Assembly (NCBI GenBank): GCA_902782305.1
Contig: CACZMV010000005.1
Location: 9,008-73,007, forward strand
DNA length: 64,000 nucleotides
Reading direction: 5' to 3'
Origin: an uncultured Prevotellaceae bacterium
Lineage (GTDB): Bacteria; Bacteroidota; Bacteroidia; Bacteroidales; Bacteroidaceae
A program made the translations under genes and the position numbers. The notes under the pieces were generated by a model. The model made no database searches, was not told the DNA's origin, and saw only the letters and a list, made by a program, of their open reading frames with translations. This document shows, one piece after another, positions 53,033-63,120 of the stretch (position 1 is its first letter; each line of letters opens with the position of its first letter).

Positions 53033-53193
53033 AAATGAGGAATGAGGAATGAGAAATGAGAAATGGAAATGAGAAATGTTTAAATGACATTCGCGACATA
53101 TAGCATTATTGCTTGCGTTGGAATTCATTTCTCATTTTTCATTTAGGGCGAAGCCCGTCATTATTCATTTCTCATTCCTCATTTCTCATTTGG
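53033..53193. repeat. Inverted heptamer arm pair (empty element)
   Basis: L arm 53033-53087; R arm 53125-53193 with hairpin GGGC-GAA-GCCC. Confidence 0.9.
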
Positions 53194-53655
53194 CGACTTT
53201 GTCGCCTTTGCCAGTTGACTGTTGTAATAACGGCGGTCGCCCGTCACCTCTTTCCCGATGAAATAGGGCTTTTTGTAAGGTTCATCCTCGTAGGCAAGCT
53301 CTACTTCCGCTACTACCAAGCCTTCGTTGGCACCATGAAATTCGTCGACCTCAAAGGTATGATTTCCGGACTTTACCAACCAACGGGTCTTGTCGATGAT
53401 GCCCGGCTCGCAGAGCTGCATCATCTGCTTGCCATCTTCGAGCGGAATCTCGAGTTCGAACTCGTAACGGGACAATCCACCATTCTCGCTGGGACCCTTT
53501 ATAGTAAGGTACGCGCGTTCGTCACGGATGCGCACACGCACCGTTCGACCTCGTTCGCTGCAGATATAACCCTGCACAATGTGGCTTTTAGAAAAAGCCT
53601 CGTGCTTAAACGAGTCGTCAAGCACGAGGAACTTACGTTCAATTTCTTGAGCCAT
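53179..53655 (-). CDS. CYTH domain protein
   Basis: EIERKFLV, QGY, VRVRI, LTIKG, RYEFE, IDKTR, EVDEF and AEVEL motifs. Confidence 0.92.
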   Translation of the reverse strand: MAQEIERKFLVLDDSFKHEAFSKSHIVQGYICSERGRTVRVRIRDERAYLTIKGPSENGGLSRYEFELEIPLEDGKQMMQLCEPGIIDKTRWLVKSGNHTFEVDEFHGANEGLVVAEVELAYEDEPYKKPYFIGKEVTGDRRYYNSQLAKATKSPNEK

Positions 53656-53798
53656 TACGACATCATGCTAAAGGTCCAGATGAGATAGATAATGGCGAGA
53701 ACGATGAGTCCACCGAAAATCCAACCAACTACCTTCTTTCCCTTTTCCTCCTGCTTTTTCTGCCAAGCTTCTTTCTTTGCATTCACTTTCTTGTTCAT
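53655..53798 (-). CDS. 47-aa basic single-TM small protein (below the ORF-track cutoff)
   Basis: MNKKVNAKKEAWQKKQEEKGKKVVGWIFGGLIVLAIIYLIWTFSMMS*; its stop overlaps the CYTH start (TAATG). Confidence 0.7.
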   Translation of the reverse strand: MNKKVNAKKEAWQKKQEEKGKKVVGWIFGGLIVLAIIYLIWTFSMMS

Positions 53799-53810
53799 AA
53801 TACTTAGTTT

Positions 53811-54035
53811 TAAATGAGAAATGAGAAGTGAGAAATGAGAAATGCAAATGAAAAATGAGAAATGCAGTTCTCTTTCTCAATCATCTCACAACTCGTGGTT
53901 ATTATTTATCTTGATATTATTCTTTTATTCTCCTGTTCATTTTTCATTTGGCGCGCAGCGCCTTTATTTCTCATTCCTCATTTCTTTGACCAAGGTACAA
54001 AGCGACCAAAGGTCGAGCGCTCATTCCTCATTTGG
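53811..54035. repeat. Inverted heptamer arm pair (empty element, R arm interrupted)
   Basis: L arm 53811-53865; R arm 53937-54035 with GGCGC-GCA-GCGCC and a 36-nt insert. Confidence 0.88.
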
Positions 54036-60333: not shown

Positions 60334-60342
60334 TCCTGTTGT

Positions 60343-61287
60343 TTAGAGTGCCATGAAGCGACGCAGTATCTCGTCGACCTCAACCTGACGATATTTACCA
60401 GACAACATGGTACGTGTCTCCCAGTTGTCCTCATGGTCTATCTTACTCAGCATCATTTCAAACTTGATTTCCTTCTGGGGAGTAATCAAACCCACCTTAT
60501 GAAGCATGGGGAAATGCTTCGAGTTGATGCGCTGGAAATCCTCATAGTCCCAGTTCAACTGGTAGTTGCCGCGGAACCTGTCATTATACATGATGTTGGC
60601 CATTTCCACCAGCTTTGAAGATTGTTCCGTGAGCCAGCGATACGACAGTTTGCCGTCCTCCATCGCTATCACCACGTCATCGTCGGCACCCAGTTCGGTC
60701 TTATAACTCTTCATATTGCTGTCGGCAAGATGCGCCTTACCAGGCTGGAACAGTTCGTTCCAGAAGAGAGCCTGGATGACATAGAAGTCGATATGGCTGT
60801 TGCGCAAGAAGTCGAGGTGTGCATACGGCACCTTCAGATACTGCTTATTGATACGGTCGATGATCAGCACATAGTCGGGCGTGAACTCCAGACGACCTGC
60901 CTCCACGAAACCGAAGGCCATCAGCTGCAAGCGAATGACATCGTCGCGCTTCATCTTCAGGTTACCCGTCAGCGTCATCTGCTGGGCACCCACCTCTACC
61001 GTGAACTTGATCTTCGACGTGATGAAACGAGCATGCTGGGCATTGTCGTTCACCTCCTGCAGGAACGTAAGCCTCTGGATCGAATCCGTCAGGTCCGGCT
61101 TTCCGTCGGCCTTGACCTCTGCGGCTACGGGTGCAGCGCTATTTCTCTTGACTGTCCTCGATGCGGACTGTTCGCTTTTGGGGATAACGGTTCCCTTTCT
61201 GCCCAGTCCTTTCATCGAACTACACGAGGTTACAACGACCAGTGCTGCCATGCAGGCGGTCACTGTCAAGAAACGTAATGTCTTCAT
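60343..61287 (-). CDS. DUF4292 lipoprotein
   Basis: Lipobox VTSC; MKRDDVIRL..EAGRLEFTPDYVLIIDRINKQY..QALFWN; dut-TPR-DUF4292-EnvC order is typical of Bacteroidota. Confidence 0.8.
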   Translation of the reverse strand: MKTLRFLTVTACMAALVVVTSCSSMKGLGRKGTVIPKSEQSASRTVKRNSAAPVAAEVKADGKPDLTDSIQRLTFLQEVNDNAQHARFITSKIKFTVEVGAQQMTLTGNLKMKRDDVIRLQLMAFGFVEAGRLEFTPDYVLIIDRINKQYLKVPYAHLDFLRNSHIDFYVIQALFWNELFQPGKAHLADSNMKSYKTELGADDDVVIAMEDGKLSYRWLTEQSSKLVEMANIMYNDRFRGNYQLNWDYEDFQRINSKHFPMLHKVGLITPQKEIKFEMMLSKIDHEDNWETRTMLSGKYRQVEVDEILRRFMAL

Positions 61288-63056
61288 TCTTTCAGATATT
61301 TCTTTAGTTTTATTTTTCTAATCAATACTTGTCTTCTGGGACCCTGTATCTCCTTGTCATTGCCTGCGACGGCACGGTCCAACGACTGCTGCCAGAACAC
61401 CAGGGCCTTGTCGGTGTCGCCAACGTGATAATAGATGTCGCCGGCATGTTCCAACAAGACGGCCGACGTGTCGCTATCGTTCTGCAAGGTCTGATCGATA
61501 TAGATGCGGGCCTCGCTGTATCGTTTCTGCATAAACAGAATCCAGGCGTAGGTGTCCAGATAGGTGGCATTCTTCGGTTCCGCCTTGATGGTACGGTACG
61601 ACATCTGCTCCGCCTTGTCCAGTTGCTCTCCTTTGATGCTCAGGTAATAGGCGTAGTTGTTCAGACAAGCGATGTTATCGTCCTTCCACTGCAGACAAGA
61701 GTCGTAGGCTGCATAAGCCTCGCGGTCCATGCCTTTCTGGTGCATGATGTCGCCCATCACCGCATAGAAGTCGCTGACGATGGCAGGGTCGCTCTGCTGG
61801 GTGATGACTCCGATACCATTCTGGAAAGCATCCAGTGCCTCGTCCAACTGACTGTTCTGGTAATAAGCAATGCCCTGATAGTAATAAAAGGCCATTTCAT
61901 CGGGGTTATACTGGCGCGCCTCCTTACACAACGCTATCACCTTATCACGGTCTTCGTTCTGCCAAGCATAGCTGACTAGTTGCAAGCGGGCAGCGGCATT
62001 GTCGGGGGCTATCTGGATGGCTTTCTCCAGCACAGCACCAATGCTATCCTTTGGCATCTTCTTCAGATTCATATAGGTGGCACAGAAGAGGGCCATATCA
62101 GCGTCGCTCTGTGGCAGGTCCAGCATGCGATGGAACAGCTGCAACACACGGGTAGAGTCGCCTCCCGACCGTTCGCTCTCGCCAATCACCTGACGCATCA
62201 GTGTCACACGGTCTTCCGTCGAGCTCTGCTTGTTCAGCAGAATCTCTTCTATCAGTCGGTTGGCAGCGGCAGAGTCATGCTGTTCGTTATAGTGAGCCAG
62301 CATCGCCATCTGCGCATTACGGTTGTCGGGGTCGTCCTTTAGAATCTCATGATAGATGGCCAGCGCCTTCTTCTGCTGACCGTTGACATAAAGGGTGTTG
62401 CCATACAGACAGCGGTAGTTGTTATCGTGCGGATATTGGTCGGCCAACTTCTTCATCTCGCTGATGGCCGCCTTCTTGTCGCCTTTCTGCGTAAACAGGC
62501 TGCTCTTGGCAAACGACAAGCGCTCCGACTTACCCTCCAGGGTCTCCAGACGGTTCAGCGTACGGATGGCATTGTCGTAGTCCTGTTGCTGTTCATAAAG
62601 CTGTACCAACATGCCCAGCACCTCGTCGCGCTCACGACTCTTGTCGTAGAGACGCTCCAGCATCTCAATACCCTCAGCATACTGGCGCTGGGAGATATAG
62701 ACATTCGCCAAGGTCTCCAGATAGGTGGTGTTGTCAGGTTCCAAGTCCACCGCCTTCTTCATCATCCCCAGCATCTTGTCCTTCTGCTTCAGCGCTCCAT
62801 AGTATTGAGCCAAATAGAAGTAAGCCTCGGAACGGGTAGAGTCGATGTCCACACAATGGCGCAGCAGGTCGAAAGCCGCATCGCTGTTGCCTTTTTCTCT
62901 CTGCACGATGGCTTCCAAGAAGAAATTATCGTAGCGCTGCTGCACATTCTGTGCTGTGCAAATGAGGAATGAGAAATGAGAAATGAGAAATGTAAATGTA
63001 AAAATGAAAAATGCTCTCATTCTCGCACTCGTACTAAATACCTTCAATCTTTTCAT
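61284..63056 (-). CDS. Tetratricopeptide repeat protein
   Basis: Multiple TPRs; LNNYAYYLS and YLDTYAWILF; start MKRL at 63056. Confidence 0.88.
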   Translation of the reverse strand: MKRLKVFSTSARMRAFFIFTFTFLISHFSFLICTAQNVQQRYDNFFLEAIVQREKGNSDAAFDLLRHCVDIDSTRSEAYFYLAQYYGALKQKDKMLGMMKKAVDLEPDNTTYLETLANVYISQRQYAEGIEMLERLYDKSRERDEVLGMLVQLYEQQQDYDNAIRTLNRLETLEGKSERLSFAKSSLFTQKGDKKAAISEMKKLADQYPHDNNYRCLYGNTLYVNGQQKKALAIYHEILKDDPDNRNAQMAMLAHYNEQHDSAAANRLIEEILLNKQSSTEDRVTLMRQVIGESERSGGDSTRVLQLFHRMLDLPQSDADMALFCATYMNLKKMPKDSIGAVLEKAIQIAPDNAAARLQLVSYAWQNEDRDKVIALCKEARQYNPDEMAFYYYQGIAYYQNSQLDEALDAFQNGIGVITQQSDPAIVSDFYAVMGDIMHQKGMDREAYAAYDSCLQWKDDNIACLNNYAYYLSIKGEQLDKAEQMSYRTIKAEPKNATYLDTYAWILFMQKRYSEARIYIDQTLQNDSDTSAVLLEHAGDIYYHVGDTDKALVFWQQSLDRAVAGNDKEIQGPRRQVLIRKIKLKKYLKE

Positions 63057-63120
63057 TCCTAATTTCTCATTTAGGGCAAAGCCCGTCATTTCTCATTACT
63101 CATTCCTCATTTCTCATTTC
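62960..63120. repeat. Inverted heptamer arm pair spanning the dut stop and the TPR start/signal peptide
   Basis: L arm 62960-63013; R arm 63053-63120 with GGGC-AAA-GCCC. Confidence 0.9.

Follow-up and report, generated by a model that had tools for sequence, protein, structure and literature searches.

The window analysed here, i.e., the whole 64,000-nt stretch of contig CACZMV010000005.1 (positions 9,008 to 73,007, assembly GCA_902782305.1) from an uncultured Prevotellaceae bacterium, possesses 13 tracts of the tandem heptamer AAATGAG, here called arms, and one facing pair of them encloses a gene encoding a 130-aa four-helix-bundle (4HB) protein. The tracts were searched for over the whole window with Tandem Repeats Finder (TRF, period 7), whose arrays are given in Table 1, and with a script clustering near-matches to the unit, which recovered the same 13 tracts and no similar ones in the rest of the 64 kb. 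In addition, the pattern RAATGAGRAATGAGRAATG matched 22 times in the window and not once in 100 shuffles. The neighbouring genes are housekeeping genes, namely dut, prfB and those encoding a TPR protein, LolB1, an M23 peptidase, an ArgE/DapE-like deacylase, an acyl-CoA ligase and a CYTH protein.

Read from the outer end in the AAATGAG direction, all 13 arms start with AAATGAG, hold exactly four heptamers and continue with a fifth unit starting AAATG. Further inward, two types, left (L) and right (R), can be told apart. Each of the six L arms continues with a hexamer AAAT(G/T)N and 2-3 more units, just as an earlier note on this DNA had described them, while the R arms 53124-53191, 55650-55717 and 63053-63119 carry AC-GGGCNNNGCCC-T at the place of the hexamer, again followed by 2-3 units. 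In three of the six L arms the hexamer is AAATGT, and such an arm is identical to an R arm lacking 13 nt (AC-GGGCNNNGCCC). The 24-nt R-arm signature around the GGGCNNNGCCC mini-hairpin has three matches with none expected. The GC hairpin that had been claimed for this point of the R arms is thus present as GGGCNNNGCCC in three arms and as a different hairpin in R arm 53936-54033, which follows the same plan with a 36-nt insert between outer units 2 and 3, and tract 58774-58841 is broken off inside it (AAATGAC GGG) and joined to 2.4 units of the opposite arm. Arms 154-188 and 10033-10067 consist of five outer units only. With the 4+1 outer units and the junction point shared by 13/13 arms, the description as a defined two-arm element rather than a free microsatellite is borne out.

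Altogether, the window contains one parent-type copy with the gene and three paired copies without it, besides one mini copy and four single arms. The spacers between L and R arms measure about 35, 70, 40 and 81 nt (copies 53033-53191, 53812-54033, 62960-63119 and 9896-10067), within the range of about 35-85 nt given before. The pair 9896-10067 is atypical: no inner part follows the five outer units of its R arm, and both a promoter-like box and the start codon (ATG) of the downstream open reading frame (ORF) fall in its spacer, so that this R arm lies within a reading frame. As well, hairpins starting with GG and ending with CC adjoin four of the seven R-type arm ends (53192-53206, 54034-54067, 55718-55752 and 58829-58841); each differs in sequence and overlaps the 3' end of the upstream gene, and they may either belong to the element or represent a preferred target.

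Table 1. Arms, paired copies and associated features in the window, with the period-7 arrays reported by TRF.
Feature	Position	Strand	TRF array	Remarks
Solo R-type arm (five outer units, no inner part)	154..188	-	155-188	Between convergent genes
L arm (four heptamers + AAATGT + 3 units)	9896..9951	+	9896-9950	TAnnTTTG-like box of minus-strand SNF transporter gene 8 nt outside
Short R-type arm (five outer units)	10033..10067	-	10034-10067	Inside 5' end of ORF 10020-10448, open CTCATTT direction
Gene-less paired copy	53033..53191	.	53033-53078; 53125-53191	L arm 53033-53088; R arm 53124-53191; GC mini-hairpin 53146-53156
4HB 5'-end remnant in spacer of the 53033-53191 copy	~53082-53112			Read on + strand
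GG...CC hairpin adjoining outer end of R arm 53124-53191	53192..53206	.		Translated as part of CYTH tail
Gene-less paired copy between prfB and the 47-aa/CYTH genes	53812..54033	.	53812-53864	L arm 53812-53866; R arm 53936-54033
Details of R arm 53936-54033	53936..54033			GC hairpin 53950-53962; 36-nt insert 53984-54019 splits the four outer units 2+2
L arm of gene-bearing copy	55171..55225	+	55171-55224	Outer end 9 nt upstream of prfB start codon (prfB on minus strand)
Four-helix-bundle gene, 130 aa, TIGR02436/PF05635	55262..55654	-		ATG is the ATG of innermost R-arm unit AAATGAC
R arm of gene-bearing copy	55650..55717	-	55684-55717	GC mini-hairpin 55672-55682; outer end 4 nt from acyl-CoA ligase stop codon
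Solo L arm	57649..57704	+	57649-57703	Between divergent promoter-like boxes (57640 minus, 57717 plus)
Mini derivative	58774..58841	.	58774-58828	Four heptamers + AAATGAC GGG + 2.4 opposite-arm units, then GGCGCAAAGCGCC hairpin, then T's
Gene-less paired copy between dut and TPR gene	62960..63119	.	62960-63013; 63086-63120	L arm 62960-63013; R arm 63053-63119; GC mini-hairpin 63074-63084

The 4HB gene is the only TIGR02436/PF05635 gene in the window. Its product matches NCBIfam TIGR02436 with 88.2 bits (cutoff 24, E 3.9e-25) over profile positions 2-109 of 109, and PF05635 was found in all 120 listed of its 829 near relatives. At E up to 1e-3, 7,428 clusters at 50% identity match the family. 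Many of the homologs come from short contigs (500-1000 nt), which likely reflects assembly breaks. The protein matches PDB entry 2RLD (E 2.5e-29), and a profile of 47 family sequences also reaches entry 2GSC, both of which contain five chains; Avd was not reached in the PDB by the same profile at E up to 1. With its S23p-family ORF enclosed by inverted repeats, copy 55171-55717 has the arrangement of an intervening sequence (IVS).

In reverse orientation, the spacer of the gene-less copy 53033-53191 aligns to 55624-55670 of the full copy, with small indels, at a score of 46 against a maximum of 26 in 200 shuffles. The matching segment consists of the inner R-arm units and about 30 nt of the 4HB reading frame. 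Because these 30 nt or so of the 4HB 5' end are kept beside one arm, the gene-less copies can be understood as internal-deletion derivatives of a gene-bearing copy, and for at least one of them the sequence comparison firmly supports such a descent. An element that is defined and copied from a template is likewise firmly supported, and both statements of the earlier note on this matter, copying from a fixed template and non-autonomous derivatives, find their backing here: the former in the identical 4+1 units and junction point of 13/13 arms together with the remnant, the latter in the internal deletion that the remnant points to.

As TAnnTTTG is the promoter consensus of Bacteroidota, the region was scanned for this box. 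Such boxes precede dut (63588), the ligase gene (57567) and an AraC-like gene (52969), and with this consensus none was found between the dut and TPR genes, between the ligase, 4HB and prfB genes, or between prfB and the 47-aa and CYTH genes, so that three paired copies appear to sit within transcription units. The distance from the outer ends of these copies is 0-7 nt to the stop codon of the gene upstream and 9-14 nt to the start codon of the gene downstream. In the AAATGAG direction the arrays contain TGA and ATG in all three frames, while the CTCATTT direction is open; therefore, host genes end within arrays, and the ORF at 10020 (10020-10448) reads through one of them in the open direction. 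For instance, the last codon of dut (K) and its stop fall in the outermost heptamer of the 62960-63119 copy, and two genes reach NEK-stop in the second heptamer of a tract, the ArgE/DapE-like gene in the mini derivative 58774-58841 and the CYTH gene (minus strand, 53179-53655) in R arm 53124-53191. In arm 154-188, the outermost unit shares bases with the TAA stop of the DUF4294 gene (minus strand, 187-756).

The outer parts of L and R arms pair over 33-34 nt with 91-94% complementarity in the best-aligned pairs, including 94% for 55171-55203 and 55685-55717 of the gene-bearing copy. Computed as RNA of the strand used by the neighbouring genes, with z taken against shuffles, the predicted folds reached -71.1 kcal/mol (z -9.12) for 53025-53215, -65.0 kcal/mol (z -9.05) for 62950-63130, -67.0 kcal/mol (z -4.29) for 53800-54045 and -150.5 kcal/mol (z -4.93) for 55160-55730 with the gene, and none of these regions had a shuffle folding equally well. 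The GC mini-hairpin protrudes as a side branch in each of the four predicted folds, and the 4HB start codon, in the innermost unit, is paired in the predicted stem.

Protein ends in related genomes suggest that the element is present in some close relatives and absent from others. Among 120 ortholog clusters of the CYTH protein (78-99% identical to the query), 93 end in P[FYW]xxW, the ending of the family itself, 26 end in NE(K/E), and one has neither. The NE(K/E) ends are preceded by residues that are coded in the window by the GG...CC hairpin and the array. Similarly, 35/120 clusters of the ArgE/DapE-like protein end in NE(K/E), and another reading of the array, as an N-terminal extension starting MRNE, occurs in 12/120. 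These array-coded ends (MRNEK... heads and ...NEK tails) stand in public gene calls of both ortholog groups, which means that the arrays distort annotation.

A contig scan with a 19-letter heptamer pattern yielded at least 120 loci, and 80 of the 120 listed had flanking sequence. The listed loci come from Bacteroidota, Bacillota, Acidobacteriota, Planctomycetota, Chloroflexota, Campylobacterota and others, and their tracts are heptamer arrays whose unit sequence drifts along the array. An inverted partner within 800 nt was found in the AAATGAG...CTCATTT order at 24/120 loci and in the reverse order at 4/120. None of the 120 was syntenic with the window, and blastn of the window against these loci matched arrays only (10 hits). 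A 4HB gene was recognized by the broad family hidden Markov model (HMM) at three of the 80 flanked loci, each time adjoining the tract, and a narrow HMM of close homologs found the same three. One of them, in a Clostridia metagenome-assembled genome (L072), is a full cassette with AAATKAG arms, the ATG in a heptamer and 42% protein identity. As for unit numbers, the earlier note had set continuous variation against a defined element: in the window, the outer number is fixed at four (five with the partial unit), and this part of the claim stands; in-phase runs in 30 other Bacteroidales loci, however, have between 2 and 10 units, most often 4 (15/37 runs), so some slippage also occurs. Two scan loci hold further heptamer arrangements: after aroQ in a Prevotellaceae locus, a second family, GAGTTAG x8 (L077, 5490-5700), and in Dialister, window-unit arms, each with a GC hairpin, round a 240-nt spacer containing more heptamer arrays (L048, 8240-8600).

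A tblastn search against plasmids gave 31 records, from which 12 were picked for taxonomic spread (Monoglobus, two Nostoc species, Aulosira, Treponema, Euhalothece, Bernardetia, Pseudanabaena, Chondrinema, Planktothrix, Chlorohelix and Gloeocapsa). All 12 examined plasmid 4HB loci have period-7 arrays on both sides within 260 nt. Together with a second Nostoc gene, this makes 13 array-flanked 4HB genes in 12 plasmid records from five phyla (Bacillota, Cyanobacteriota, Spirochaetota, Bacteroidota and Chloroflexota), to which two scan loci (L072 and L047) are added. The plasmid arms are mostly inverted pairs with a lineage-specific unit, and their copy numbers are mostly 3.6-5.9, reaching 15 and 41; Pseudanabaena has longer periods. 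The unit of the window, RAATKAG, is shared by Monoglobus (46.6% identity) and the Clostridia locus (42%). As a control, 8/10 period-7 arrays of at least three copies in two 50-kb regions lay within 170 nt of a 4HB gene. These data firmly support an association of the 4HB gene family with inverted heptamer arrays in different phyla. The plasmid 4HB genes are wedged between co-oriented operon genes, including those for an RND adaptor and permease. Some of these plasmid cassettes (L121, L128, L131 and L132) are placed in defence-type operons, where they separate hsdS from hsdR, precede cas1, or stand between helicase and DNA methylase genes or between DUF1156 and HEPN genes. On the Bernardetia plasmid, an array of the published type, TAACTGA x5 (L133, 2752-2787), neighbours the start of a gene of the sigma-70 family; the 4HB cassette of this plasmid is 22 kb away and has a different unit.

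According to a published account, cited here in part, the IVS in the 23S rRNA of Coxiella burnetii belongs to a host transcript and holds an S23p ORF in an inverted-repeat stem loop excised by RNase III, with two to three tandem heptamers immediately ahead of the ATG, in numbers that vary between strains, and it is regarded as selfish with no known means of moving (PMC4990558). The same passages name S23p-ORF IVSs in Leptospira, Xanthomonas and Brucella and describe S23p of Xanthomonas, the protein of entry 2GSC, as a homopentameric ring (PMC4990558). The gene-bearing copy of the window is like the Coxiella IVS so described in having a PF05635-family ORF looped by an inverted-repeat stem and heptamers right before the ATG (PMC4990558). 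Unlike IVSs, the window copies lie between protein-coding genes (the full copy between those for the acyl-CoA ligase and prfB) and not in helix 25 or 45 of 23S rRNA; unlike the Coxiella IVS, they have heptamer arrays on both sides, built to one fixed architecture in which the GC mini-hairpin is asymmetric, and gene-less derivatives outnumber the gene-bearing copy. Cleavage by RNase III was demonstrated for the Coxiella IVS as cited (PMC4990558), and is supposed by analogy for the window copies. Apart from the Coxiella IVS heptamers, no literature linking the 4HB family to flanking heptamer arrays was found in a search that did not cover subscription journals and database family notes.

Intergenic tandem heptamers also include the short tandemly repeated repetitive (STRR) sequences of cyanobacteria. 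According to parts of two previous studies, TAACTGA repeats are found in Beggiatoaceae, Cyanobacteria and Bacteroidetes, where they occur immediately upstream of start codons as possible regulator sites, and related heptamer repeats show indels in 7-nt steps (PMC4679880), while families of four or five tandem heptanucleotides in Geobacter metallireducens were presented as putative global regulator sites (PMC2700814). The arms of the window share with these repeats, as far as they are described there, the period of 7, the intergenic position at gene ends or starts, unit counts of four or five, the stops in all frames one way with an open frame the other way, and the contig breaks (PMC4679880, PMC2700814). 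Unlike the window arms, both kinds are treated in the cited parts as direct arrays, without a 4HB link or paired inverted arms (PMC4679880, PMC2700814). Besides, PF05635 was reported, in a further study cited in part, to resemble Avd (4DWL aligned with 2GSC) and to be the commonest Pfam beside the reverse transcriptases of diversity-generating retroelements (DGRs) (PMC10053308). Unlike DGRs with Avd, the window has no template/variable repeat pair, and none of its 33 scanned ORFs (12 against NCBIfam, 21 against Pfam) matched a reverse transcriptase family.

Within the window, the earlier note was right that no cluster lies in 10.1-53.0 kb. This block consists of three ORFs (4820, 1283 and 4004 aa) and a tight FimA/DUF3575-type operon, with 11 short junctions. 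None of the 11 junctions in 10.1-52.9 kb is occupied, against 8/19 elsewhere (hypergeometric P = 0.013), while the two flanks of the block (6/9 and 2/10 junctions occupied) do not differ significantly (Fisher P = 0.07). Since the empty block is made of giant ORFs and coupled genes with few junctions and the difference between its flanks is not significant, local spreading, as proposed before, is possible and not established. With FimA-like and DUF3575 genes coming after the three giant ORFs of the minus strand, this block (11835-42217) is an adhesin/fimbria-like locus, in which the sole family match of the largest ORF (4820 aa) is M26 N-terminal-like. At or just upstream of the 5' ends of large ORFs, other tandem repeats were observed (5366-5443, 11766-11813 and 29788-30128), with periods of 11 (GTAGCAAGGGG type at two places; AGGCATACTCT x7.9; ACACCTTGGCT x3.7) and 22, which are a second repeat system in this genome. 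Elsewhere, two SNF-family symporter paralogs (6616-9852) are split by a DUF559 (endonuclease-like) gene at 8006-8371, and a tRNA-Leu (CAA) was called by ARAGORN at 5224-5306, though no family, neither rRNA nor even tRNA, was matched when the whole window was scanned with Rfam at the gathering thresholds.

Taken together, the tracts are probably the arms of a family of palindromic, IVS-like cassettes, present as copies and deletion derivatives of a template rather than as products of local slippage. The parent form would consist of a heptamer array, a 4HB gene (TIGR02436/PF05635, S23p family) and the same array inverted. Paired copies inside operons would be transcribed with the host genes, and base pairing of their arms in the mRNA may leave the 4HB reading frame as a loop, by analogy with the rRNA IVSs. 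RNase III would be likely to cleave such a stem. Strong termination is not expected of it, since prfB follows one of the stems immediately and no promoter motif intervenes, and the arrays may halt ribosomes from either side ahead of the stem. The 4HB protein, a pentameric ring in solved relatives, could be the trans-acting partner that recognizes about five tandem heptamers of its own arms, and gene-less copies would then rely on 4HB protein made elsewhere.

Several observations weigh against the cassette interpretation. Apart from arm units, nothing in the spacers of 53812-54033, 62960-63119 and 9896-10067 resembles the interior of the full copy, so that such similarity is found in one of the three typical gene-less pairs and not in the atypical 9896 pair. 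In 53033-53191, the GC mini-hairpin stands on the opposite arm, relative to the homologous inner segments, from that in 55171-55717, and neither a simple deletion nor an inversion between outer arrays accounts for this position. Within the window, neither a copying event nor a transposase nor a target duplication was seen. The polymorphism among relatives rests on protein ends, and no empty orthologous DNA site was seen. As for the stem, no compensatory changes were seen between paired arms, and with the A/G differences unmatched it has no covariation support; the 9896/10033 pair flanks a promoter and a start codon and thus cannot act as a single RNA hairpin; four arms are solo and unpaired. 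Outside the window, 77/80 flanked scan loci have the heptamer without a 4HB gene within 5 kb, the proximal arrays of Treponema and L047 are direct and not inverted, and the phage collection gave two weak matches only, of which the one examined, on a phage-like contig, is a 4HB-like gene without heptamer arms.

Different explanations can be offered for the same tracts. The arrays might be regulatory or structural sites selected by the host, i.e., binding sites of a global post-transcriptional regulator, stabilisers of 3' ends or bidirectional terminators, none of them mobile and with the 4HB gene as one regulated gene among others. Published heptamer families were read as regulator sites in the parts cited above (PMC4679880, PMC2700814), arms of the window stand 8-12 nt from promoter-like boxes (9887, 57640 and 57717), and the copies at operon ends or between convergent genes (53033-53191, 58774-58841 and 154-188) could stabilise 3' ends, 58829-58841 being terminator-like. 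However, the terminator scan of the region found 11 sites against 10.1 expected from shuffles, with only the GGCG...CGCC hairpins at 53950 and 58829 belonging to elements, and the essential prfB follows directly behind a copy with no promoter box between. Sites of this kind would also leave unexplained the 4HB remnant in a gene-less copy, the replacement of the CYTH C-terminus by hairpin and array in 26/120 clusters, and the occurrence of the same gene family with differing arrays in five phyla, and we consider such host-selected sites unlikely. Plain microsatellites, i.e., independent slippage arrays of a favoured heptamer that are inverted by chance proximity, would fit the runs of 2-10 units of the same heptamer elsewhere, the drifting arrays of 15-41 copies and the 7-nt-step indels that the cited part of one study reports for related repeats (PMC4679880), but they are scarcely credible here, as they are already contradicted by the architecture within the window: the same four outer units and junction point in 13/13 arms, the 24-nt hairpin signature in three, paired arms folding at z about -9 and a 4HB gene remnant within one copy.

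The label given by the earlier note leads to conventional miniature inverted-repeat transposable elements (MITEs) or repetitive extragenic palindromic (REP) doublets forming hairpins (REPINs), moved in trans by a transposase encoded elsewhere (DDE or Y1 of the IS200-like or REP-associated tyrosine transposase (RAYT) kind), with the 4HB gene as a passenger. These, like the Correia elements of Neisseria, are short palindromic, gene-less, multi-copy sequences that are co-transcribed and can form RNase III substrates. The element shares with them the logic of non-autonomous derivatives, the intergenic position and many gene-less copies with paired inverted arms round a short non-coding core (about 35-70 nt in the three typical pairs, 81 nt in 9896-10067). 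No target duplication or shared direct repeat was found when the outer arm flanks of all element ends were compared by eye, which speaks against a MITE, although REP/REPIN and IS200/IS605-type elements typically make none; and the hairpins at 4/7 R-arm ends might be a target preference. Nevertheless, no transposase or RAYT, and hence no RAYT flanked by the same repeats, was found among the 33 scanned ORFs of the 64-kb window, the only full-length relative carries the gene of the 130-aa 4HB protein in the place of a transposase, and the arms are tandem arrays and not unique terminal repeats. In addition, the arms change sequence across phyla while the gene family is constant in 15/15 array-flanked cassettes outside the window, so the 4HB gene does not behave as cargo. 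The MITE label therefore did not hold up, the REPIN label found no support in the 64 kb of the window, and movement by a foreign transposase appears very unlikely.

Considering the cassette reading beyond this genome, we tentatively suggest, as a possibility with the balance still against it, that 4HB pentamers, each recognizing about five tandem heptamers of the arrays at its own flanks, make up together with these arrays a class of self-copying palindromic cassettes that is widespread and has so far gone unrecognised. The 23S rRNA IVSs, the intergenic heptamer repeats of Cyanobacteria, Bacteroidota, Planctomycetota and others, and the gene-less Prevotella hairpins would be members or debris of this class, which may move via an RNA or single-strand intermediate, much as Avd assists a reverse transcriptase. 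Recognition of heptamer arrays would give a testable role to a very large protein family of unknown function, and a common origin is thereby offered for tandem heptamer repeats whose separate descriptions from several phyla gave no mechanism. By contributing start and stop codons, the arrays alter the ends of host proteins (NEK tails and MRNEK heads). If the proposed RNA behaviour holds, IVS-type elements would extend beyond rRNA into ordinary operons of a major gut genus, where long stems beside essential prfB and dut may shape mRNA processing.

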